Source: an uncultured virus (IMG/VR IMGVR_UViG_3300046524_000154) (taxonomy: Duplodnaviria; Heunggongvirae; Uroviricota; Caudoviricetes). From it: a DNA stretch of 24,476 nt. The first letter of the stretch is position 1. Each line of letters begins with the position of its first letter. The notes beneath the pieces are model-generated. The model did not search any database. It was not told where the DNA came from and saw only the letters and a program-made list of their open reading frames with translations. This document shows positions 1-20,575 of the stretch, piece by piece. Location: IMG/VR virus record IMGVR_UViG_3300046524_000154. The stretch is one strand, 5' to 3'. The translations under genes were made by a program, and so were the position numbers.

Positions 1-3000
1 CGTTCAGCACAGCCTCGCCGTGCGACAGACGTACAAGCGCGGTATCGTCGCGCGAGCCGCCCGGCGCCGTGACGTAGCCCTTCGAATCAATAAAGCTCGT
101 GCCGTCGGCGTGTCCGCTGTAGCCGCTGATCAGGTCATCCGGCGTACTGGTCGCTGCCGCGCCTGCATTCTCGCTGCCGGCCGCCCCACCGAACGCACTA
201 ACAGCCAGACCGACCAGCTTCTGGATTGCGTACACAGCCAGCAGCTGCTCGATCGCATACGCCGCGAAGTTCTTGAAAGCGTCCTTGCCCCCGGACGTCG
301 CCGCCACCACTCCCGTGTAAAACAGGCCGGTGAACTGGGTGGCGTTCATACCGAGCGCGCTAAACGTCTCAGTACCAGTCGCCTTGAAGGACTTAAGGCT
401 GTCGTTCGCTGCGTCGAGCTGCGCGGTAATGGAGTCGCGACCGGAGCCCTTATAGCCGCTGATCAGGTCATCAGGTGTGCTGGTGGAAGATGCGCCGAGA
501 GCCTCGCTGCCGAGGTTCGAGCTGCCCGGCAGCGCTGCGTTGCCGACTGGGCCGCTCGGCGTGATCGTGCCGTTCGCGAGGCCGATAAGCTGCCTCAGCA
601 GGTCGGGGATCGTAACGTTCAGCGCGTCCGTCATCGACTGTGTGTTCAGCGCCAGATCCTTCTGAGCCTGATCACGCGCGGCGTCAGCCTGCGACGTCGC
701 CCCGGTCGCCTTGAGCAGATCCTGGAAGGCCTTCAGCTGCGTCTCAGTCATCGACTTCGACAGCTGGCTCGTGATCGAGTCGTACAGGCCGCCGCCGATG
801 TTCGACGTGTAGTCGCGCAGCGTGTACTTGCTCGCTGCCTGCGGACTCTTGAGCGACTGGAACAGCGACTCATTGGCCTTTTGCGTGCCAGAGCTGAAGC
901 CCGACACGACCTGATCGGCCAACGTCGTGCGACCTTTCTCCAGCGATGCGATCTGCGCGTCGACCGCGTTCAACGTCTGCTGGTAGATGTTCGCGAGCGT
1001 GGTCGCGTTGTCCATCAGCAGCTTCTGGCGGTCCTGCTCGATCGCGTAGATCTGTGTCGCAAGCGACAGCACGTTGGCCTGCCGGGCGAGCGCGAGCGTC
1101 TCCTGATCGGCGCCCGACTGCACCAGCTGCTGGTACTGCACAGCCTGGTCGTACTGGGCCTTCTGAGTCACCGCGCGCTCGGCCGCGTCGTCCAGCGCGT
1201 TCTGGTCGAATGCGTTGGCCGTGCCGTACAGCGTGTTCAGATCCTTAAGGATCGTGCCGCGCGCGGCAATGATCGTGTTGATGTTCGTCAGCCGCTCGGC
1301 GATCGCACGCTGAACTTCCTGCTCTTCGTAGTCGAGTTGAATCTGCTGCAGCTTTGCCTGATGCTGTCGCTCCAGACCTCGCAGCGATGCCTCCAGCGAT
1401 GCCTTGCTGTCGGCGTTGCCGTTGCGCTGCGCGTTCTGGATTTCCTTCAGGATCTTCTGGCGCGACGCCTCGTAGCTCGACTGCTCCGCCGTAACCTGCA
1501 GCGTCTCGATCTGCGCGTATTTTTGCTCGTCGATCGCGATACCGAGGTTCTTGAGGATTGCCAAACGATCTTGGGCCGTCTTTAGGGCAGCGGCGTCCTG
1601 CTTGGCGATCTCCTGCGCGGCGTTGTAGTTGGTCGGGTCGATGTGCCCGCGCGGCGTCTTCTTATCGTGATACTTCGCGTTGGCCTTGGCGACCAGGTCG
1701 TCGACGTCCTGCTGCGAGATGCCGCCGTTGGCTACACCGAGATCGACGAGCGGCTGCAGTCCTTGGCGAAGCCGTTGCTCTTCCGCCGCGCGCTTGTCAG
1801 CCGGCGTGGCAAGTTTCTTACGCTCCGCGTCGAGCAGCTGCTGCGCGGTCACTTGCGCGCGTGTCGCCTGCGTCTGCTCGCCCTTTTGCTTGGCAATGAA
1901 CTCTTCGTACTTCAGCTGCTCCTGCAGGAAGTAGAGCTGCTTCTCCTTCTCGGACGTGTCGTTCATCTCGACGCCACCGGCGCCGTCCTGCGTCGGGCCT
2001 TGCGCCTTGTCCGATGCGATGTCTGCCTGGAGCTTGGCGATCTGCTGCCCGATCGACTGCTTGCGCCCGAGCCCTTCCAGCGCGTCGATGGTCTCGCTGA
2101 TCAGCTTCTTGACTTCCATCCAGCCGGCGATCATCAAACCCTGGTCTTCGATCACCTTCTTCGACGCTTCGTCGGTTGCGCTCGTCAGGTCGCTCATCGC
2201 GAGCGCGACTGCACCGATCCGGTCGCCGTGGCGCTCAGCCGCAGCGATCGCCTCGTACGTGGACGCGGTCAGGAAGTGATACTGCTCGTCGAGCTTGAAC
2301 ACCGCCTCGGTCGGGCTGTCCTTGATCGACTGGACCTGCTTGACGAAATTCTCGACGTTGCCGCCAGCCTGCTGTAGCAGCGCCGCAGAGGTGGCGATCG
2401 CGGCGATCTGGTCTGCCGTGTAGCGGCCCGACTGCGCCAGCTCCAGCACGACGTCCTTTGCACTGCCGATCGTGCCGCCCGCGTGCGCGGCCGACTCAGC
2501 AATCTCTTCCAGACCGGATACCGTCGTGCCGGCGATGTTGTTGGTCTGCGCCAGCGCGAGGTTGAGCGCGTTCTGTTCCTGCGCGCCCTTGATGGCGGCA
2601 GCGGCCATCACAGCCGTCGCCGTGCCTGCTGCGAACAGCGACAGCCCGAGCACGCTGAGAATGCCGTCGAACGTGCCCGAGATCGTCAGCAGGCGGGTCA
2701 CGGACGCGGCCATGCGCGACCATTCACCTGTGAACAGATCCTTCATGATCGTGGTGAACTCGCGCGCGGTACCGGCCGTCGCGTGGAACCCGATCGCGGC
2801 CTTGCCGCCAGCCTCGCCGACGGCTTCGAGATCCGCCGCCAACTGGTGCGCGGTCTTCTGCGCAGCGCCGACCACGGTGTAGTCGCCGATCGCCGCGCTC
2901 GGGAACTTGGCCGCGAGCGAGGGGTTGTTCGCTACCGTCGTGCCGCTCAGCTTCTCAGCTGCGGCGATCTCCTGCAGCGTGCGCAGCCGCGCGCCGTCTC

Positions 3001-4165
3001 TTTTGGATAGGTACGCGGCGCTCGCGACGAGGTCCGCGTTGCGCGACGCCTCGATGGCCTGCAGCTCCTTCTGCGCGGCCATCTCGCGCTTTAGCGCTTC
3101 CACCTGCTCCGCGCGTTGCGCGAGGACAGTCGAGTCACTGATTTTCGCGGAAGCTGCGGTGCGCTGAGCTTCAGACGCGGCGAGTTCTTTTTCGAGCGCC
3201 AGCGCGATCTGGTCGTTGGCGATCCGATCCGCAGCTGCCCGCGCGGCATCCTTCTCCTGCTCGGTGCGCTGCGCCAGAACCTGAGAATCGCCGATCTTCG
3301 AGGACGCTGCGGCGCGCTGCGCCTCGGAGGCCATCAGCTCTTTTTCGAGGGCGAGGGCGGTCTGGTCGTTCGCGATGCGGTCGGCGGCTGCGCGTGCGGC
3401 GGCCTTCTCCTGTTCCTCGCGCTGAGAGACGATGGACGAGTCACTGATCTTTGCCGACGCCGCGACGCGACGCGCTTCGGACGCGGCCAGCTCTTCTTCG
3501 AGCGCGAGCGCCGTCTTGTAGTTGGCGACCCGATCCGCTGCGGCGGCTTTCTCCTGCGCCTCAAGCTCCTTGGCCGCAGCCAGCTGGGCAGCTTCCTGTT
3601 CGGCGCGCTGGGAGACGATGGACGAATCGCTGATCCGGCTCGACGCGGCAGCGCGCGCCTCTGCGGACGCAGCCAGCTCCTTTTCGAGCGCCTGCGCTGT
3701 CTGGAAGTTTGCGACACGGTCTGCAGCGGCGCGGGCCTCGGCCTCGGCCTGCGACTTGGTGGCATTGGCTGCCTCAGCGGCGCGCACCTTGGCGGCGGCA
3801 CTTTGGGCCTTCTGCTGCTGCACGTACTGCGCCGCCGTCTCCTTCATCTGGTCGGAGACGAGCTTGCCAGCGGCAGCCTCTTCAGCCGACGCCTCAACGG
3901 CCACCTCCGCTGCAGCCTTTCTCGCAACCGCCATCTCGTTGATCTTGGCGATCGCGACTTCGGCTTCCTGCGCGTTGGCGTTAAGACCAGCGCCGACCTC
4001 CTGCAGCTGGTTGCCTGTGCGTTGCAGCGCCTCGGCCATTTTGCCGATGCTCGCGCCCGAGTTCTCAATCGACTGGATTGCAGCCTTGAACTTGTCGAGC
4101 GCATCCAGCGCTGGACCGTAGTCCAGCGTTGCTACGAGGGCGACGCCGCCAGCTTGTTCAGACAT
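1..4165 (-). CDS. Tail tape measure protein, 3' end beyond the window (at least 1388 codons)
   Basis: Not in the ORF track, consistent with no in-window stop. ATG at 4165 with GAGG RBS (MSEQAGGVALVATLDYG). Ala/Glu/Gln-rich helical sequence; lambda gpH-like segment LLQQAGGNVENFVKQVQSIKDSPTEAVFKLDEQYHFLT; typical TMP C-terminal GHADG...GYVTAPGGSRDD...RLSHGEAVLN; follows the chaperone gene. Confidence 0.92.
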   Translation of the reverse strand, partial: MSEQAGGVALVATLDYGPALDALDKFKAAIQSIENSGASIGKMAEALQRTGNQLQEVGAGLNANAQEAEVAIAKINEMAVARKAAAEVAVEASAEEAAAGKLVSDQMKETAAQYVQQQKAQSAAAKVRAAEAANATKSQAEAEARAAADRVANFQTAQALEKELAASAEARAAASSRISDSSIVSQRAEQEAAQLAAAKELEAQEKAAAADRVANYKTALALEEELAASEARRVAASAKISDSSIVSQREEQEKAAARAAADRIANDQTALALEKELMASEAQRAAASSKIGDSQVLAQRTEQEKDAARAAADRIANDQIALALEKELAASEAQRTAASAKISDSTVLAQRAEQVEALKREMAAQKELQAIEASRNADLVASAAYLSKRDGARLRTLQEIAAAEKLSGTTVANNPSLAAKFPSAAIGDYTVVGAAQKTAHQLAADLEAVGEAGGKAAIGFHATAGTAREFTTIMKDLFTGEWSRMAASVTRLLTISGTFDGILSVLGLSLFAAGTATAVMAAAAIKGAQEQNALNLALAQTNNIAGTTVSGLEEIAESAAHAGGTIGSAKDVVLELAQSGRYTADQIAAIATSAALLQQAGGNVENFVKQVQSIKDSPTEAVFKLDEQYHFLTASTYEAIAAAERHGDRIGAVALAMSDLTSATDEASKKVIEDQGLMIAGWMEVKKLISETIDALEGLGRKQSIGQQIAKLQADIASDKAQGPTQDGAGGVEMNDTSEKEKQLYFLQEQLKYEEFIAKQKGEQTQATRAQVTAQQLLDAERKKLATPADKRAAEEQRLRQGLQPLVDLGVANGGISQQDVDDLVAKANAKYHDKKTPRGHIDPTNYNAAQEIAKQDAAALKTAQDRLAILKNLGIAIDEQKYAQIETLQVTAEQSSYEASRQKILKEIQNAQRNGNADSKASLEASLRGLERQHQAKLQQIQLDYEEQEVQRAIAERLTNINTIIAARGTILKDLNTLYGTANAFDQNALDDAAERAVTQKAQYDQAVQYQQLVQSGADQETLALARQANVLSLATQIYAIEQDRQKLLMDNATTLANIYQQTLNAVDAQIASLEKGRTTLADQVVSGFSSGTQKANESLFQSLKSPQAASKYTLRDYTSNIGGGLYDSITSQLSKSMTETQLKAFQDLLKATGATSQADAARDQAQKDLALNTQSMTDALNVTIPDLLRQLIGLANGTITPSGPVGNAALPGSSNLGSEALGASSTSTPDDLISGYKGSGRDSITAQLDAANDSLKSFKATGTETFSALGMNATQFTGLFYTGVVAATSGGKDAFKNFAAYAIEQLLAVYAIQKLVGLAVSAFGGAAGSENAGAAATSTPDDLISGYSGHADGTSFIDSKGYVTAPGGSRDDTALVRLSHGEAVLN
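3104..3692 (-). repeat. Imperfect 153-bp (51-aa) tandem repeats in the tape measure gene, about 3.5 units
   Basis: Anchor (K/R)I(S/G)DS recurs at 3132, 3285, 3438 and 3624 (spacings 153, 153, 186); unit KISDSSIVSQREEQEKAAARAAADRIANDQTALALEKELMASEAQRAAASS. Confidence 0.9.
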
Positions 4166-4208: not shown

Positions 4209-4234
4209 AAAACGCCAGCCGAAAGGGCTGGCGT
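4209..4234 (-). terminator. Intrinsic terminator-like hairpin between chaperone GT and tape measure gene
   Basis: Minus strand ACGCCAGCC-CTTTC-GGCTGGCGT-TTT overlapping the GT stop codon; short U tract. Confidence 0.65.
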
Positions 4235-5003
4235 CAAGCGCTTTTGCGGTGGCCGTCTGGCTCGGGGGCGGTGCGCTTACCCTGCATCTTCTTCACCTGA
4301 TGCTCGACAAACTTTCCATCGAGCGACTGGACGATCTGCAGGACTGCCTGGCGCATGTCGAGATCCCGGATTCGCATCATCTCGCAGTACGCCAGCACCT
4401 CCGATATAGGGATTGGCTGGGGGCCGACCTCGGTGTATATCCGCGCCGAACTCAGATGGCGGAACACCGCGTACATCTCAACGTCGTCTGCGCTTAGCTC
4501 TGGCTTGTCTCGGAGCGGCTGCGGCTGCTTGCCGGTCGCTTGCCAGATCTGCGTCAGGAAGTCGATTTGTGGCCCCCACTGCAGCTCCCAGGTCAGGCGG
4601 CCGACGAGTTTTTTTCCTGCTTCTCGATCGCGTCGTAGCGGTAGTTGTCCGCATTGCGCGAGAGGTTGAACACCAGGTCGCGGAAGTCCGTCAGCTGGAG
4701 CAGGGTGACTGCGTTGCTGACCGAGTATTCGAGCGGTGCTCCATTGAATTCGATGCCTTCCCAACCCACGAGGATGTGGTTCGCCATCACTTCGACGAGG
4801 TTGTCGACCGCTGCCTTGTCGGCAATTTTGGGGTCGGTCGAGGCCAGCACGACAGCGTGGCGCTCGCGCAGCGTGCGGAAGAGGGCGTTAGCGTTGTCGT
4901 TGCCGAACCGCGCGACGACGATGGTGGTGGTGGCGTCCAGCGGGTGGCGCACGCCGTTCACTTCCTTCGCAGCGTCGGTCGCAAACTTCTTGAAGATATC
5001 CAT
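4234..5003 (-). CDS. Tail assembly chaperone, -1 frameshift product (gpGT-like, about 256 aa)
   Basis: A_AAA_AAC near the end of the 136-aa ORF opens into the -1 frame (LVGRLTWELQWGPQIDFL...PQPIPISEVLAY) ending at 4234. Confidence 0.85.
4593..5003 (-). CDS. Tail assembly chaperone (gpG-like, 136 aa)
   Basis: Position between tail tube and TMP; ILVGWEGI motif; ends EKNSSAA across the slippery site. Confidence 0.87.
   Translation of the reverse strand: MDIFKKFATDAAKEVNGVRHPLDATTTIVVARFGNDNANALFRTLRERHAVVLASTDPKIADKAAVDNLVEVMANHILVGWEGIEFNGAPLEYSVSNAVTLLQLTDFRDLVFNLSRNADNYRYDAIEKQEKNSSAA
4608..4614 (-). promoter_or_regulatory. Programmed -1 frameshift slippery heptamer A_AAA_AAC
   Basis: Minus strand CAG GAA AAA AAC TCG fits X_XXY_YYZ in the correct frame. 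Confidence 0.85.
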
Positions 5004-10471: not shown

Positions 10472-10966
10472 TTAGGCGCGCATCAGGACAACGACAGCGT
10501 TCGCGTCGCCGATGTTGAAACCGGGCAACACACCAACGATGCGCAGCTTGAACGTCAGCGCCGCGATCGTTGCTGCGGCTTGGTCGGCGGTCAGCTTGAC
10601 CTTGGGGCGCGGGAACTGGTTCACGTCGTTGTACGTACCGCGAGCGGCCTGCGCGTCAGCCAGCACGTAGTTGCCGATGGCCCAGCCGGCCGTAGCGATC
10701 ATGGCTTCCTTTTTGTTGCCCGGCTCGATGTAGCGCACCGCGCCCACCGTCAGACCGTCGGCCGTGAAGTTCGAGATCGACGAGACGTAGCCTTCGATCT
10801 GGTCGCCAGCCGAGCAGATATCGAACTGCGCGTCGCCAGTGAGCTTCACCGGCTTGCCGCGATCGGCATCCGTCAGCGGGGTGCCCGAAGTGCCGAGCTT
10901 GACCGTGATGACGTTTTCGGTCTGGTCCGAAGACGTTTCCGACAGAATGACTTTTTTCGTTGCCAT
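10472..10966 (-). CDS. Putative head decoration / cement protein (164 aa)
   Basis: ATG at 10966 with AGGAG RBS; D.GKPVKL.GD...C.AGD.IEG motif; lambda gpD-like position before the capsid gene. Confidence 0.7.
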   Translation of the reverse strand: MATKKVILSETSSDQTENVITVKLGTSGTPLTDADRGKPVKLTGDAQFDICSAGDQIEGYVSSISNFTADGLTVGAVRYIEPGNKKEAMIATAGWAIGNYVLADAQAARGTYNDVNQFPRPKVKLTADQAAATIAALTFKLRIVGVLPGFNIGDANAVVVLMRA

Positions 10967-11025
10967 TTCAGGACTCCTGAAGAAATTGGTTTCGCCCAAG
11001 GGCGTCTTGCGTTTCGGGCAAAGCC

Positions 11026-12672: not shown

Positions 12673-14405
12673 GGTTTTGCCTTCTGTGTGGTCTGTTTCG
12701 GTTGCGGCGCGGACTTCGCAGGCGCTGGCTGAGCGCCCGTCTTGCCGGATTTCGGTGTGTTCTGGAGCTGCTCGGTCTGGCTGCCGCCGCCACCGTCCTG
12801 CCCTGGCGAGCCGCCCGCGCTGGTGCCCGAGTACGGGTTCGTCGCGGCGGTCGAGACCGTGGTGGGCTCGTAGAAGCGCGTGCCCGAGAGAGGTGTGAAC
12901 GTCCCGGAAGGCAGCTGGCCGGTAAGGGTGATAGACGCCTGCTCGTCGGAGATCAGCCCGAGCGAGAGCTGCTCCATGATCCGCGCCTGGCGCTGGTTCA
13001 TGAACGCTTCCAGCTCGATCTCAGGACGCAGGTTGATGTCGGAGAGCTTGAATTCGACCACCGAGTCACTGCCCAGCATGCGCAGGATCAGCGTGAACAT
13101 GCGCGAGAGCAGCTCGTTCAGCGGCTTCTGCGTCGAGCCTTCAACCTGACGGATGAAGATCATCGACTCGACCGACGTGTTGCTCGCGTTGTTGCCGCGC
13201 CCGATGATGCCGGGCAGCACCTTGGCGCCCGAGCTGACTTTCGAGTCGGCCATGCTGGAGAGCTGATCGTATTCGGCCGAGAGCGACGAGTTGCCCCGGT
13301 CGAGGATGGCGACCTCCATCGAATCGAGAACCACCAGCGCGTCTTCCGGCTCAAGACCGTCGATCGACGTCGCGATCTGGTCGACGAAGCCGTTGTAGAA
13401 CGCCAGCAGCTTGTCGGAGTCCTGCTGTGCCTCGGGCGGGATCAGCCCCTGCAGCTCTTCCGTCTTCACGGTGATGACCGTGCGCGGGTGCAGGTTGATG
13501 CGGATCACACGGCGGATGTCGTTGAGCAGCTGCAGCCCGAAGAGGGTGGCCTGCAGCGCTGGCTCCATCGGCGACTCGGAGTACGCGGTGTAGAGCGACT
13601 GGTCGAGCGAGACGTAGAAGAACGCCGGAAAGTCCAGCGGCACGTACTGACCACCGACCTGCTGGTTCGGAATAGCCCAGCGCGCGTTGTTCGATGGAAA
13701 CCACTTGATGTCGCGCGAGCCGACCGGCTGAATCCGCGACGGCACGCGAGCCTGATCCATCACGACTTCACCGCAGGCCGAGCCGAACTGGCGCAGCTCC
13801 AGCGCCCACATCTCGCACAGTGCGCGCAGCGAGAAGTTCGGGTTGTAGCCTTGGTCGTACTGGCCGATCAGGTCGTTCTGCCGAATCCACTGCTGGATGA
13901 CGGCGGAGCCCTGCGGATCAACGGCGCCAGTCGTGCGGTCGTACGCGATCACGGTGGGGTTCGTGAGCGCGAGCCGGATGTACGCGTCGACGGCGGCGGC
14001 CAGCTCCGGGTTGACCTTCGAGAAGACCTGGATGGTCGACTTGGTCGTGCCGGTGGTGCGGAACGTCGTGAGATCGAGGTTGGCCGTGCCGCGATCGTTG
14101 TCGACCATCTGCGCGGTGGTCGCCGGCTTCGCGAGCGTGAACATCGACGGCGTTGTGACGCCGCCTTTGCCTTTGATCTTCGGATCTGCGACGTCAGGCA
14201 GGTCAGCCGCGCTGCCACCTGTGCCCTTGGCCGGGCCGAGCACCTGGTAGCCAAGCTGGCCGTTCTCGCTGTTCAGTACGACCTGGCGCTGGCCGATTTT
14301 CACCGTGTTCAGCTTGGGTTCGAGCGGGCGGCGTTGCTCCTTAGCTCGCGATCCGATCGCGAACAGCTCGCCCATCTTCTTGCCCAATTCCCGGATACCA
14401 GCCAT
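12669..14405 (-). CDS. Portal protein (578 aa)
   Basis: Likely start MAGIREL at 14405; size and position between terminase and protease; ELRQFGSACGEVV and SPMEPAL elements. Confidence 0.8.
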   Translation of the reverse strand: MAGIRELGKKMGELFAIGSRAKEQRRPLEPKLNTVKIGQRQVVLNSENGQLGYQVLGPAKGTGGSAADLPDVADPKIKGKGGVTTPSMFTLAKPATTAQMVDNDRGTANLDLTTFRTTGTTKSTIQVFSKVNPELAAAVDAYIRLALTNPTVIAYDRTTGAVDPQGSAVIQQWIRQNDLIGQYDQGYNPNFSLRALCEMWALELRQFGSACGEVVMDQARVPSRIQPVGSRDIKWFPSNNARWAIPNQQVGGQYVPLDFPAFFYVSLDQSLYTAYSESPMEPALQATLFGLQLLNDIRRVIRINLHPRTVITVKTEELQGLIPPEAQQDSDKLLAFYNGFVDQIATSIDGLEPEDALVVLDSMEVAILDRGNSSLSAEYDQLSSMADSKVSSGAKVLPGIIGRGNNASNTSVESMIFIRQVEGSTQKPLNELLSRMFTLILRMLGSDSVVEFKLSDINLRPEIELEAFMNQRQARIMEQLSLGLISDEQASITLTGQLPSGTFTPLSGTRFYEPTTVSTAATNPYSGTSAGGSPGQDGGGGSQTEQLQNTPKSGKTGAQPAPAKSAPQPKQTTQKAKP

Positions 14406-14457: not shown

Positions 14458-14473
14458 TAAATCCGCTGAAATG

Positions 14474-14504
14474 AAAAACGCCGCACACCTTTCGATGCGC
14501 GGCG
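14474..14504 (-). terminator. Intrinsic terminator with GAAA tetraloop
   Basis: Minus strand CGCCGCGCATC-GAAA-GGTGTGCGGCG-TTTTT, with G-U pairs valid on this strand. Confidence 0.85.
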
Positions 14505-14536
14505 CCGGGCCAAACATGGACAACCACTATGCCACT

Positions 14537-14689
14537 CCTGCATGCGGCAGACGGGGGATCTGCCGCACAGGCCGCCATACGTCGACGACCTTGACTTCGG
14601 TAGAGCGCCGGGGGTTGCGCTGTGCTACTAATCCGGTTTTCTGGATCTGGCGACCGGGTGGGCCAGTCGTGATGCGAACCTTAGTCGTC
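14537..14689 (-). ncRNA. Candidate structured RNA (multibranch domain plus long hairpin)
   Basis: GACGACT/GGTCGTC closes three short hairpins (14584-14689), followed by CCTG-TGCGGCAGA/TCTGCCGCA-CAGG (14537-14571); folded by eye only. Confidence 0.3.
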
Positions 14690-14702
14690 CTGACCTTGTG
14701 TG

Positions 14703-14828
14703 TCAATCATCCTCTCTCACGTCGACCCGGATATTGCTCGGCTGGCCGAACGTCCGGGGCTCGTGAGGGCGCTGTCTGCGCCGTCCGAAGACGCGGCGCA
14801 GCAAGGTCAGGAGCAGGCGCACAAGCAT
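14703..14828 (-). CDS. 41-aa peptide MLVRLLLTLLRRVFGRRRQRPHEPRTFGQPSNIRVDVREDD
   Basis: ATG directly follows the upstream TAA; shares the TFGQPS motif with the upstream protein; below ORF-track cutoff. Confidence 0.7.
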   Translation of the reverse strand: MLVRLLLTLLRRVFGRRRQRPHEPRTFGQPSNIRVDVREDD

Positions 14829-15197
14829 TTACGCGACGACTGCGTCGGCTTCGACCACCACCGACATACCGCTCGGCTGGCCGAACGTCTTCGGTACCGG
14901 GGGCGTGCCGCCCGTCTCAATCACCGCGAAGCTCAGCTCGGACGGCGAGCCCAGGTTTGCCAGACTCGCGTCGCCGGTGAGGCGCTGAGCGACGCCGATG
15001 TACGAGCCCGACGGGACGCCGGTGAACACCGCGCTCGGCACAGCCATGTCTGAGTCGTCGACGTCCTGCGTCGCCACGACGGTCGTGCGGTCGGCGCTGA
15101 GAATCGACACACGCAACTTGCCGACGACGGTGTCTTCGGGTACCGAGATCGCCGAGAGCGCGATCTGCGTGATGATCATCGAAAGAGTGACTTTCAT
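14829..15197 (-). CDS. Small all-beta (Ig/FN3-like) hypothetical protein (122 aa)
   Basis: AGGA RBS; Val/Thr/Ser-rich; FTGVPSGSY.G.AQ resembles the FN3 E-F strand motif. Confidence 0.75.
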   Translation of the reverse strand: MKVTLSMIITQIALSAISVPEDTVVGKLRVSILSADRTTVVATQDVDDSDMAVPSAVFTGVPSGSYIGVAQRLTGDASLANLGSPSELSFAVIETGGTPPVPKTFGQPSGMSVVVEADAVVA

Positions 15198-15265
15198 TTT
15201 GTTTTCCTAACTATTGGTGGGGGTGAGCCGAGGGACGGCAGCCCGGATTCTAATTCAACAGGAAG

Positions 15266-15324
15266 AAAAATGGCCGCCTTGGGAGAGCGGCCAATGAAAA
15301 AAGGTAGCGCGAGGCCGCTACCTT
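15266..15324 (-). terminator. Two tandem intrinsic terminators
   Basis: AAGGTAGCG-GCCTCG-CGCTACC-TTTTTT (15297-15324) then TGGCCGC...GCGGCCA-TTTTT (15266-15293). Confidence 0.8.
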
Positions 15325-15331
15325 CGGGGGC

Positions 15332-15553
15332 TTAGTGGTGCGAGGGTTCGCGGACGAAGTAGGCCGGGTCGTATCGCGGCTCAAGGTTGTCCTCGTGGCG
15401 CTCGGCGCGAACAATCTCCCGGACCTCGCGCAGAATGCGGCCAGCAGACGGTCGCTGGTACACCGTACGCGTGAAGTGTCCCGGCTCATCGAGTAGCGCG
15501 AGCGCGCGCCGGAACCCGTTGAGTGCGTCATCGAATCGTTCACTAGCTGACAT
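15332..15553 (-). CDS. Hypothetical protein (73 aa)
   Basis: ATG at 15553 with GGGAG RBS; stop directly followed by the terminators. Confidence 0.6.
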   Translation of the reverse strand: MSASERFDDALNGFRRALALLDEPGHFTRTVYQRPSAGRILREVREIVRAERHEDNLEPRYDPAYFVREPSHH

Positions 15554-15728
15554 GGCTGAACTCCCAGGTAGCTGAAGCGGCTCATTCTTTGCTAAACGTC
15601 TGATTTGATCCACGACTGTTACTCATGGAAACAGTTCAGGATTCCCAGGTAAATTTTACTCCGTGCGTACTCCATACAAAGCCGTCGCGGCGCCGCGTAA
15701 GCATTTAGAAAGGGTACGACGGTACTTT

Positions 15729-18447: not shown

Positions 18448-19329
18448 CTATCGGCGCCAGCGCGGGTCGGCGTCGATCTCTTTGAGCGTCCGGTTGATGA
18501 CGCTGACGTTGTACGCGGGCGGCGGGCCGATCGACCACGAGGCGATAAAGCCGACCTCCTGCAACTCGTCGAGCGCGCGCTTTAGCGATTGCCGCCAGGA
18601 CGCCATATTCGCGCGTTTGCTGCGGCACAGCCTGTGCAGAGTCTCCGCCTTGAACACCGCAGGCGCCTCGGTCGTGTCGTGCGTAGCGAAGAACCTGTGC
18701 AGCCAGTTTGCGAGCGGCGACATCTTCTGCTCGGCCGCCCACTTGATCAGCGTCGTCTCGCTACCTGTCAGCAGGTTCGCGAGTTCTAGGTTGAGCTTGA
18801 TGGTCCAATTCGTCTGCACCGAGTCGAGGCCGAGCGTGTTGGCCGCATCAGCCTTGACGGACCCGAAAAGGTGGGTGCCGTAGATCTGCGTGTAGTTCTT
18901 GGCGCCGGGCTTCCTGACTGACAGCCACACAGTGCCTTCAAGCATGCGCCGGTACGAGGACCGCAGGCGCTCATAGTCCTCCTGCGAGTCGCTCCACTTC
19001 AGGCCCGCGAGCGCCTGTGCGCCGGTGATGCGGATCTCGCTGCCGATGTTCTCATCGCGCGCCAGATGGCACAGCTGCATGAACACGGTGTGGTCGTCCT
19101 GATCCAGCTGCGCGCCGGTGTAACGGATCTCAATGCCGTCGACGGACGCGAGCAGCGCGTTGTCGTACTGCTCTCGATCCTTGCCCTTCTCCCGCAGCCC
19201 GAACAACGCCGTCCGTGCCAGGTTCTTGGACATCGCGCGTTTGTCCTCGCTCCACGACGGAGATAGCTTCAGCGACATCTGAGAGCGTTGTTCGAGCTTC
19301 TGTGCGATTTCAAGCGCTTTGATGGACAT
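18448..19329 (-). CDS. trfA: Plasmid replication initiator, TrfA family (293 aa)
   Basis: ATG at 19329 with GGAGG RBS; W...RAM...ARTALF, YTGAQL..DD..V..Q, SPLA.WL..FF.TH, ETL..LC.S and WR...AL.EL...G match the RK2 TrfA motifs I recall; adjacent iterons. Confidence 0.9.
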   Translation of the reverse strand: MSIKALEIAQKLEQRSQMSLKLSPSWSEDKRAMSKNLARTALFGLREKGKDREQYDNALLASVDGIEIRYTGAQLDQDDHTVFMQLCHLARDENIGSEIRITGAQALAGLKWSDSQEDYERLRSSYRRMLEGTVWLSVRKPGAKNYTQIYGTHLFGSVKADAANTLGLDSVQTNWTIKLNLELANLLTGSETTLIKWAAEQKMSPLANWLHRFFATHDTTEAPAVFKAETLHRLCRSKRANMASWRQSLKRALDELQEVGFIASWSIGPPPAYNVSVINRTLKEIDADPRWRR

Positions 19330-19376
19330 GGCTGGCAGGCCTCCGACTAGACCGGGAAACGGTAGCACGACACCTC

Positions 19377-19542
19377 TCCGGGGTATCGAATATCTTTCCG
19401 GGGTTTCGCATATATTTTCCGGGGTTTCGTATAGGGTTTCCGGTGTTTCGCATATTTCCCTCCGGGGTATCGAATATCGGCTCCGGGGTATCGCATAGGG
19501 TTTTCCGGTGTTTCGGATATGGTTTGCCGGGGTATCGTATAT
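19377..19542. repeat. Replication origin iterons: eight 17-bp direct repeats, consensus TCCGGKGTWTCGNATAK
   Basis: Starts at 19377, 19397, 19418, 19439, 19461, 19482, 19504, 19526 (20-22 bp period, about two helical turns). Confidence 0.93.
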
Positions 19543-19571
19543 GCGGTACCCGGAAAAACGCCAATCAAAAC

Positions 19572-19630
19572 AAAGGCTTATAGCACGTATCCACAAGCTA
19601 TAAGCCTTTCATAAGCCTTTATAATCCTAA
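19572..19630. promoter_or_regulatory. Origin accessory region: near-consensus DnaA box inside a 13-bp inverted repeat, plus AT-rich 10-mers
   Basis: AAAGGCTTATAGC / GCTATAAGCCTTT flank GTATCCACA (19587-19595); ATAAGCCTTT x2 and ATAATCCTAA. Confidence 0.65.
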
Positions 19631-19643
19631 AACCGTCAGCGCC

Positions 19644-19931
19644 CTACCCGTGGTGCTTCTTACGCCGCGCCAGCTCCGCGATCGTGCCGGCCACGATGAC
19701 GTCGGTCATGGGCACGTCCGTCAGCTTCCAGTAATCGCGCAGCTCGTCGTAGATCTCCTTGGGCATGTTCACGCTCATCGACTTGGTCGAGGCCTTCACC
19801 GGGAGCTTGAACTGAGCGGCGGCCGGTTGTGGGGCCGGCGCGGGTGCGTTCTCGGGCGTGGCGCCGGGCGCGTCAGCAGCCATCTTCGCCACGAAGTCCG
19901 GTACCGGCGCAAAGGATCGTTTCGCGTTCAT
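19644..19931 (-). CDS. Putative ribbon-helix-helix centromere-binding partition protein (ParG-like, 95 aa)
   Basis: ATGA overlap with parA stop; disordered N-terminus then SMSVNMPKEIYDELR...MTDVIVA RHH pattern. Confidence 0.75.
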   Translation of the reverse strand: MNAKRSFAPVPDFVAKMAADAPGATPENAPAPAPQPAAAQFKLPVKASTKSMSVNMPKEIYDELRDYWKLTDVPMTDVIVAGTIAELARRKKHHG

Positions 19932-20575
19932 TGAAAGACCCTCCCGTACAGTTCCTCGAACTCGTCCTGTGCGTGCGCCGTGTCGCGGTTGCGCGGCATC
20001 TCCAGCACGCCCTTCCCTTCGGACGCGGCCCACGAGAACGCGTTGCGCCTGGCCATCTTCACCGGCTCGTCGCCGAAAAATTCCTTCAGTCTCTCGAACT
20101 CGTCCTGCAGGCCCGCCGTCAATGTGCTGCGGTCGTCGGGCGAGATCTTGTTCATGACCGGGATGACGCGGAACGTCTTGCCCCCTGCCCTCATCTCGGC
20201 GATCACCTCCGACATCTTCTTCAGCGACCACACGTCGAACTGCCCGGCCTCGGCAGGGATGATCAGCACGTCGCACGCGCCGACCGCGTAGATCAGCTCG
20301 GGGGACTTCTTGCCGCCGACGTCGACGATCACCGTGTCGATAGCGTCACGCTCGGCGATCAGGTCGGAGTAGATGTTCCCCGTCATTTTGGACAGCAGGA
20401 TGTTCGGCTGGACGCCCTTCCCCCGGCGCAGCATTCCCCACATGTAGAGGTATTCGTCCGGGTCGGCGTCGATGGCCTTGACCGTGTGGCCGCGCGCGGC
20501 GTGGCCTGCGGCGAGGTTGGTGGATATGGTGGTCTTCCCCACTCCACCCTTGGTGTTGGCAACAGCTATGAGCAT
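19928..20575 (-). CDS. parA: ParA-family partition ATPase, short type Ib (215 aa)
   Basis: Deviant Walker A KGGVGKTT, IDADP, VIVDVG, VMNK; no N-terminal HTH; GGAG RBS. Confidence 0.95.
   Translation of the reverse strand: MLIAVANTKGGVGKTTISTNLAAGHAARGHTVKAIDADPDEYLYMWGMLRRGKGVQPNILLSKMTGNIYSDLIAERDAIDTVIVDVGGKKSPELIYAVGACDVLIIPAEAGQFDVWSLKKMSEVIAEMRAGGKTFRVIPVMNKISPDDRSTLTAGLQDEFERLKEFFGDEPVKMARRNAFSWAASEGKGVLEMPRNRDTAHAQDEFEELYGRVFQ

Follow-up and report, generated by a model that had tools for sequence, protein, structure and literature searches.

A conserved phage gene pair encoding an FN3-like protein and a micro-protein with a shared C-terminal strand motif

Introduction

Short terminal strands and small immunoglobulin (Ig)-like domains are put to use in several described systems. 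The C-terminal part of T4 Hoc binds the capsid, and the N-terminal strand of lambda gpD augments the E-loop of gpE. Subunits of chaperone–usher pili are linked by donor-strand complementation and exchange, type V pili rely on exchange of a C-terminal strand, and tag/catcher pairs are engineered split Ig-like domains. With respect to gene layout, morons are independent promoter–gene–terminator units between structural genes. Here we describe a pair of adjoining genes from an uncultured virus of the Caudoviricetes (IMG/VR record IMGVR_UViG_3300046524_000154), of which the whole 24,476-nucleotide stretch was analysed and is called the window below. Gene 1 encodes a 122-amino acid (aa) protein with a predicted FN3-like β-sandwich, a Gly/Pro-rich linker and a C-terminal strand motif, and gene 2, directly behind it, encodes a 41-aa micro-protein that ends in the same motif.

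Phage open reading frames (ORFs) of fewer than 50 codons mostly lack annotation, and evidence that they are selected is seldom presented; we know of no decoration protein accompanied by a micro-protein that repeats its anchor. At this locus, a strand that both products carry, and that tends to co-vary, links a micro-protein to the gene beside it in phages whose proteins are only ~40% identical. The pair recurs in distantly related phages and is therefore a real but so far undescribed two-part module; a literature search, in the portions of the sources that it reached, returned no description of an Ig-like phage protein whose motif recurs in a partner peptide.

Results

A micro-protein gene follows gene 1 in four phage lineages

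Nucleotide sequences were obtained for four lineages, namely the window with L003–L007 (66% identical relatives) and the distant loci L009, L010 and L011, which show ~35–45% identity to family members. Three further sequences (G001, L001 and L002) are the same as the window or 99% identical to it and add nothing. An earlier reading of the window from its letters alone (the sequence-only reading) had proposed that the protein and the peptide form a pair, and this was borne out: an ORF of 30–43 aa lies behind the homologue in all four lineages, after a gap of 0–17 nucleotides (nt) or with a 4-nt overlap. In the window the two ORFs abut in frame as that reading had described, gene 1 occupying 14829..15197 and gene 2 14703..14828 on the minus strand, with the ATG of gene 2 directly at the TAA of gene 1 (0-nt gap). 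The peptide has 43 aa in L004 and L007 (TAA-ATG or TGA-ATG junction, with a 0-nt gap in L004, L006 and L007), 40 aa after a 3-nt gap in L010, 30 aa after a 2-nt gap in L009, and either 35 or 41 aa in L011, depending on whether an ATG 17 nt downstream or a GTG that overlaps the stop codon as GTGA is taken as the start.

A common layout can be seen in the peptides of all lineages, in which a hydrophobic or amphipathic stretch of 12–14 residues is followed by a basic patch and a Pro-centred strand. The window peptide has a putative Leu/Arg helix at residues 1–14, the basic patch at residues 15–25 and an apparently paralogous strand motif, TFGQPSNIRVDVRED, at nt 14753–14709, whereas the helix is of the Trp/Leu type in L009 and L010. 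At ~12–14 residues, the hydrophobic stretch would be too short for a classical membrane span.

The guanine + cytosine (GC) content of the peptide ORF by codon position is 0.71/0.43/0.79, like that of the neighbouring genes (0.62/0.49/0.85 in gene 1), compared with a flat 0.52–0.62 in adjacent non-coding sequence. Between the window and L004, the ratio of nonsynonymous to synonymous substitution rates (dN/dS) is 0.31 for the peptide, 0.41 for gene 1, 0.18 for TerL and 0.22 for the portal gene, and the lengths of the peptide ORF (126 and 132 nt with the stop codon) differ by 6 nt, or two whole codons. A 41-aa protein with 91% identity (P0005) has been called as a gene in another data set. The peptide is very probably translated, because its GC content by codon position is coding-like and its dN/dS is close to 0.3. 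It is highly likely that the pair is a real, conserved and translationally coupled two-gene module.

The sequencing runs that carry the stretch are rhizosphere and soil metagenomes, with no RNA run among them. Contigs of four rhizosphere-metagenome runs contain strain variants over the peptide ORF. In run X4, the region of the ORF (14729–14855) occurs as two alternative contig pieces of 127 nt, with 0 and 9 differences, and in run X7 a relative has 137 unlike letters in place of 14714–14841, between flanks that remain alignable. Within the cassette, natural populations thus vary most in the peptide ORF.

The strand motif is shared within the pair and across the gene 1 family

The tails of both ORFs read TFGQPS-x-[IM]-x-V-x-V. 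Of the shared terminal motif claimed in the sequence-only reading, the motif itself stands, but both products run on for a few residues past the quoted ends, to ...VVVEADAVVA in the protein and ...VREDD in the peptide. The observation that hydrophobic alternation continues past the underlying DNA repeat also held (SGMSVVVEAD in the protein, SNIRVDVRED in the peptide), the likeness being at the protein level. In gene 1 the putative docking-strand motif, delimited by the family alignment, is TFGQPSGMSVVVEAD at residues 104–118 (14844..14888, minus strand). The motif is family-wide, since each of the 19 aligned sequences closes with a Pro-rich linker followed by [FY]xxPxx[LIVM][ST]VxV, usually with acidic residues after the terminal strand. 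No DNA repeat is found in L009, L010 and L011, whose tails use different codons: identical tail residues have identical codons in 3 of 7 cases in L010, 0 of 4 in L011 and 0 of 3 in L009. That the tails are alike through different codons in distant lineages argues that selection acts on the peptide sequence and not on the DNA repeat.

Co-variation was scored with BLOSUM62 for every combination of protein and peptide tail, across a 13-residue stretch aligned at the invariant Pro. The cognate pairing sums to 149 against a mean of 104 and ranks fourth of 120 assignments over five loci, or second of 24 over four lineages when the window and L004 are counted as one, which points towards the motif co-variation to which the sequence-only reading had looked. 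The best partner is the cognate one in three of four lineages (the window/L004 clade, L010 and L011); the tails of L010 are VTVSVEPD in the protein and VTVQVEPE in the peptide, and those of L011 are VDVPSA and VDVPAS. These scores are suggestive, not conclusive, of co-variation between protein and peptide tails.

The family of gene 1 is small (~30 proteins of 97–160 aa) and confined to phages. A word-index search gave three close relatives at 60–74% identity, an exhaustive profile search (E<=1e-3) gave 18 proteins, all without annotation and 16 of them 99–160 aa long, and a later profile search added four family proteins. The two long profile matches (860 and 1104 aa; P0016 and P0020) are partial only and uninformative. 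In the alignment of 19 sequences only F58, Y66 and V92 are invariant, with G26, D45, L82, G83 and P108 nearly so.

Neither gene 1 nor the peptide matched a family in Pfam, PHROGs, NCBIfam or PADLOC. For the 122-aa protein, no curated FN3, Big or Ig sequence profile and 0 Pfam families at E<=0.01 were returned, and Pfam gave no relevant family for the L009 and L011 homologues; the PADLOC defence models gave 0 families at E<=0.1 for eight proteins of the cassette and its relatives. The family profile met only chance-level rows among PDB sequences (E 0.019 or worse). No relative was recovered from GenBank phages by blastn and tblastn with the region and three family proteins, from PLSDB plasmids by tblastn, or from metagenome locus scans, and nothing was found in viral locus scans with P0011, P0028 and alignments A4 and A8. 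One locus from a genome scan (L008) was rejected as a spurious out-of-frame match, and two from a viral scan with P0029 (L012 and L013) were rejected because they encode an unrelated protein. In the ESM Atlas, unnamed viral clusters were matched at 0.83–0.85, and Ig_J clusters, with scores <=0.79, are leads only.

Short-form members of the family start MSKVT... and contain charged and proline residues within the first 20 positions. An N-terminal signal peptide on gene 1 was considered and rejected, as the short forms argue against it. Isopeptide chemistry of the tag/catcher type was likewise rejected, there being no conserved Lys/Asp/Glu triad in the alignment.

The predicted sandwich of gene 1 appears complete without its tail

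An AlphaFold2 model was built from the 19-sequence alignment. The monomer has a predicted local distance difference test (pLDDT) score of 79 and six DSSP strands between residues 2 and 92, corresponding to a sandwich part of approximately residues 1–95 (nt 14913–15197, minus strand). Strand A (pLDDT 57–64) and the loop at the N-terminus are of low confidence, and the tail (93–122) is modelled as coil with pLDDT ~70–76. The best VIA structural matches are FN3 domains, with Z 7.8 and a root-mean-square deviation of 2.9–3.0 for 83–86 residues over model residues 1–97, whereas Foldseek returned generic Ig-like, FN3 and CopC rows from the PDB (E 0.01 or worse) and uncharacterised phage proteins from BFVD (E 0.003 or worse). 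The label Ig-like given in the sequence-only reading therefore has support at the level of the fold (FN3, Z 7.8) but not at the level of a sequence family, where there was no match; scores of Z <8 are common for unrelated sandwiches, so the FN3 assignment is itself soft. The same reading had supposed an incomplete Ig fold. The model gives this no support: even with the tail left aside, the monomer matches FN3 domains over their whole length, and there is no sign of an empty groove. As far as prediction shows, the FN3-like sandwich is complete without its tail, which weakens the premise of an incomplete fold.

As a rough stand-in for a complex, a single chain was also modelled in which the in-frame TAA is read as Gln. 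The protein's own tail then forms a six-residue strand (111–116, pLDDT 51–66), and the N-terminus of the peptide is predicted as a helix (120–137, pLDDT 75–82). This read-through model lends no support to docking of the peptide; because few sequences cover the peptide part, it would also not be strong evidence against docking.

Genomic context differs between lineages

The genes on either side of the pair in the window and L004 include those for the large terminase and, on the other side, the portal. In L011 it is found within the head operon, between a gene for a MuF-like head-morphogenesis protein and those for InPase, protease/scaffold and capsid proteins, in the order MuF-like gene, FN3-like gene (ATGA overlap), peptide, InPase-domain protein (GTGA overlap), protease/scaffold and capsid. 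The stretch between MuF-like and protease/scaffold genes often encodes packaged or ejected proteins. The L011 gene right behind the cassette (4410–4982) encodes an InPase domain (PF18823, E 7e-43). The L009 pair is situated 2.4 kb upstream of the small terminase gene, with a ParB gene and small ORFs on one side and tRNAs, an HNH-type endonuclease and the small terminase on the other; three tRNA genes (L009, 4256–4832) lie ~1 kb downstream of the cassette.

Discussion

A shared docking strand as the preferred reading

The reading that we prefer, with a probability of roughly 45%, is that a shared docking strand attaches both products by β-sheet augmentation to one acceptor, which is probably head-associated. 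Gene 1 would provide a complete FN3-like sandwich of ~95 residues, a Pro-rich linker and a C-terminal docking strand of alternating pattern, and gene 2 (30–43 aa) a short hydrophobic or amphipathic helix and a basic patch, followed by a strand paralogous to that of gene 1. Gene 2 most probably arose when the 3' end of gene 1 was partly duplicated. Both products would be made and would use the same strand to augment a sheet at a common acceptor site, at which the peptide and the FN3-like protein, given a single site for both strands, would either be co-anchored or compete. The acceptor is most likely a component of the phage head, which would make the pair a minimal decoration-like or head-accessory module; a head acceptor is favoured by the contexts in L011 and the window and by the parallel with Ig-like decoration proteins such as Hoc. 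The edge of an FN3 domain is a second candidate acceptor. We infer the docking by β-augmentation, the acceptor common to both products and its place on the head alike; fibres, rings, caps or membrane anchoring formed by the pair would be conjecture.

Several observations weigh against this reading. Head association is clear in only two of the four lineages, the contexts being mixed: the window pair is bracketed by terminators and has a possible promoter of its own, as in morons, the L010 neighbours are unknown small genes, and those of L009 are of the early type (ParB and tRNAs). A search of the 24-kb window and the other loci yielded neither a third protein with the motif near its C-terminus nor an obvious acceptor. 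The evidence from co-variation comes from four lineages only, and in L009 the cognate peptide scores 15 against 25 for that of the window. The read-through model leaves the tail of the peptide as undocked coil (pLDDT 58–64). The contexts compared are those of the four lineages, about 20 further family members (from Logan and ENA contigs) being known as proteins only.

Alternative explanations

The two strand copies, if they co-evolve, might instead pair with each other or with the edge of the FN3-like domain, so that micro-protein and protein form oligomers or a tether. Such a tether could hold the domain wherever the helix is anchored, be it the membrane, the capsid surface or the capsid interior, and if true this would be an equivalent of pilus donor-strand complementation that operates in the cytoplasm and needs no chaperone. 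We regard this arrangement as unlikely.

It is similarly improbable that the genes form a host-directed moron pair, in which the peptide helix would sit in or on the inner membrane and its strand would recruit the FN3-like protein, with superinfection exclusion, lysis timing or another effect on the host as the outcome. The window does have terminators on both sides of the cassette and a conserved TAGAAT before it, the helix is Trp/Leu-rich in L009 and L010 and is followed by a basic cluster, and the L009 pair lies among ParB, small genes and tRNAs. However, the short hydrophobic run is broken by Arg in the window, L004 and L011, no PADLOC defence model was matched, and the short-form members appear from the alignment to be without a signal peptide. 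The layout is itself partial in the window, where TAGAAT is present but no full promoter, and it does not extend to L011, where the pair forms part of the head operon and its stop and start codons overlap with those of adjoining genes.

A donor-strand exchange polymer, as put forward in the sequence-only reading, would have the FN3-like protein donate its C-terminal strand to the next subunit to give fibres or rings, with the peptide as cap, nucleator or anchor. The tail resembles the A-strand of FN3 domains and follows a long flexible linker, confidence in the model is lowest for strand A (pLDDT 57–64), the tail becomes a six-residue strand in the read-through model, and the tails of protein and peptide co-vary. 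These points are offset by the alignment of the domain without its tail over complete FN3 domains (83–86 residues, Z 7.8) with no evident groove, by the coil conformation of the tail in the monomer and the undocked peptide tail in the read-through model, and by the softness of a fold assignment at Z <8. On balance, polymerisation by this route seems doubtful and rather improbable.

Another alternative is that a partial tandem duplication left the small ORF behind as a decaying relic, or that gene conversion keeps the two copies alike, and that a DNA or RNA element is conserved rather than a peptide. The 19-bp exact direct repeat reported in the sequence-only reading is present, with one copy at 14736..14754 in the TFGQPS codons of the peptide and the other at 14871..14889 in those of gene 1 (both minus strand); the spacing is 135 nt (45 codons), and when extended the repeat covers 24 nt at 92% identity. 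It is unique within the window, an 18-mer with <=3 mismatches giving two sites in 24,476 bases against 0.06 expected, and two sites were found in 1 of 100 shuffled sequences. The same Thr codon is used twice within each genome (ACG/ACG in the window, ACC/ACC in L004 and L007), the repeat core TCGGC-CA-GCCGA is partly palindromic, and a TTGACA promoter-like element lies over the stop codon of the peptide, all of which would fit a nucleic acid element. With the codon usage of the window, P is ~0.03 for six identical residues to share all six codons. This value hints at homogenisation at the DNA level, and it suggests that the repeat largely reflects a shared peptide motif in a codon-biased genome, perhaps with some gene conversion. 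As evidence against a relic, the ORF is open with the same layout in all four lineages, in which the partner proteins are only ~40% identical; the repeat is absent, with different codons in use, from L009, L010 and L011; and the GC content by codon position and the dN/dS of 0.31 are those of coding sequence. No deletion joint between the repeats was found in contigs of the four rhizosphere-metagenome runs, a weak result because contigs drop rare forms. A decaying or non-coding small ORF is accordingly a very improbable explanation of the locus.

Two further roles for the repeat were rejected, that of a diversity-generating retroelement because the repeat is far too short, and that of translational bypass between the copies because no stop codon follows the first copy and the DNA repeat is not conserved in the other lineages.

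Partial read-through of the TAA, which would yield a 164-aa protein with two tandem strand copies separated by a helix, would be compatible with the in-frame arrangement of the ORFs in two of four lineages (the window with L004/L007, and L010). It is nevertheless highly improbable. The ORFs are out of frame in L009 and L011, a start codon of its own is present for each small ORF on or beside the stop of gene 1, as fits termination–reinitiation coupling, the stop is TAA or TGA in no known read-through context, and the model gains no confident structure beyond the helix in the extension.

The locus and its surroundings

On the minus strand, a gpA-type large terminase gene (17459–15729) is followed by a 93-aa ORF, the pair and a portal gene (phrog_3753), after which come genes for an S49 head protease, a capsid protein, and neck and tail proteins. 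Genes for TrfA-like and ParA-like proteins lie upstream of the packaging genes, and those of the 22 scanned window proteins that could be annotated are phage head, tail, partition or replication proteins. The terminators that the sequence-only reading had placed on both sides of the pair were recovered. Upstream are two tandem hairpins resembling intrinsic terminators (15271..15325, at 15325–15300 and 15293–15271, minus strand), with stems of 13 and 8–10 pairs followed by T runs, which form the end of the TerL/orf93 unit before the cassette; downstream is one terminator (14506–14477, minus strand), ~200 nt past the peptide stop. A terminator scan of the region gave six sites against 1.3 expected.

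Gene 1 has an AGGA ribosome-binding site at 15208–15205 (minus strand). A TAGAAT hexamer of the -10 type (15247..15252, minus strand) is found ~50 nt upstream of its start within a conserved block, ATTAGAAT, which is alike in the window and in the L004/L007 lineage by alignment. It is a possible promoter of the cassette, and a lead only because a consensus promoter scan of the region gave 0 full sigma-70-type sites.

Between the peptide stop and the portal gene is a conserved, structured non-coding stretch of ~230 nt (14470..14702, minus strand), the part before the downstream terminator having gone unmentioned in the sequence-only reading. Its identity to L004 (76% at the nucleotide level) equals that of the portal gene, compared with 71% for gene 1 and 60% for the peptide ORF. 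Several hairpins are predicted in it, with 57 pairs of which four show compensatory changes, and Rfam returned no family for the stretch. The promoter-like element over the peptide stop has the form TTGACA-N17-TAAGGT and is conserved as TTGACA-N17-TAA..T. The stretch may be a small RNA in its own right or serve the cassette as its 3' untranslated region.

The portal ORF as listed (624 aa) starts at 14543 and runs through the terminator. The real start is probably the ATG at 14405, because of a conserved TTGCGT-N17-TAAATT element (~14457–14429) and the alignment with L004/L007. The 93-aa ORF upstream of the pair (15332–15613, minus strand) has no family match, ~59% DNA identity to its L004 counterpart and a third-position GC content of 0.65; its position is that of lambda gpW, an identity that no test result supports. 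Another candidate small virion protein is encoded beside the capsid gene at 10472–10999. Two overlapping ORFs for tail-assembly chaperones (4593–5003 and 4234–4764, minus strand) have the layout usual for a programmed-frameshift G/GT pair and lie upstream of a 1388-aa ORF at 2–4165, presumed to be the tape measure. The TrfA-like replication initiator (18448–19596, minus strand; Pfam TrfA, E 1.6e-19) and the ParA-like ATPase (19928–20575, minus strand) beside the packaging genes suggest a phage-plasmid life style.

Comparison with known systems

The layout of the window pair is that of a moron insofar as it is bracketed by terminators, has a -10-like element ahead of it and lies between terminase and portal, whereas the L011 pair is an integral, translationally coupled part of a head operon; the term moron describes a layout and not a mechanism. 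With tag/catcher pairs the locus shares the idea that an Ig-like domain may be completed or extended by a short strand on a separate peptide. Those pairs are engineered, however, and the genes described here are natural and encode no conserved Lys/Asp/Glu triad for an isopeptide bond.

As in pili, an Ig-like subunit is combined with a terminal strand of alternating hydrophobicity, and a second molecule offers an equivalent strand in the manner of a pilus chaperone. The pilus fold is incomplete, whereas the fold predicted here is not visibly so, and pili are secreted, whereas the short forms of the family are without a signal peptide and the phage context is cytoplasmic. No chaperone, usher, lipoprotein or protease partner genes of the pilus type were found among the 22 scanned window proteins. 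If the strand were self-complementing, donor-strand assembly would extend beyond secreted pili.

The proposed docking also recalls the short terminal strand by which the small accessory protein gpD adds to a capsid sheet in lambda, and the window has a lambda-like head order of gpA-type terminase, portal, S49 protease and capsid. Fold, terminus used and gene position nevertheless differ between gpD and the pair. With T4 Hoc, T5 pb10 and the Ig-like domains of phage structural proteins, the pair has in common a small predicted sandwich of the Ig/FN3 type, whose gene lies within the head module or next to it in the window/L004 lineage and in L011, and Hoc is an example of an Ig-like decoration protein (PMC10385173). 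The pair differs from these in having no sequence relation to any Pfam or PHROG family, and in that its putative anchor is a single strand of 12–15 residues and not a domain.

The pair offers a concrete and cheap hypothesis, namely that one site binds both tails. Should the strand prove to be a portable docking element, the attachment of minimal Ig-like proteins to phage particles without a dedicated binding domain would have an explanation, and the strand could be used as a natural peptide tag for phage display; if no such reading holds, a new and recognisable phage gene pair is still gained for annotation. Among the systems compared here, the pair would belong with the phage Ig-like accessory proteins, and its new part is the micro-protein that shares the motif of its neighbour.

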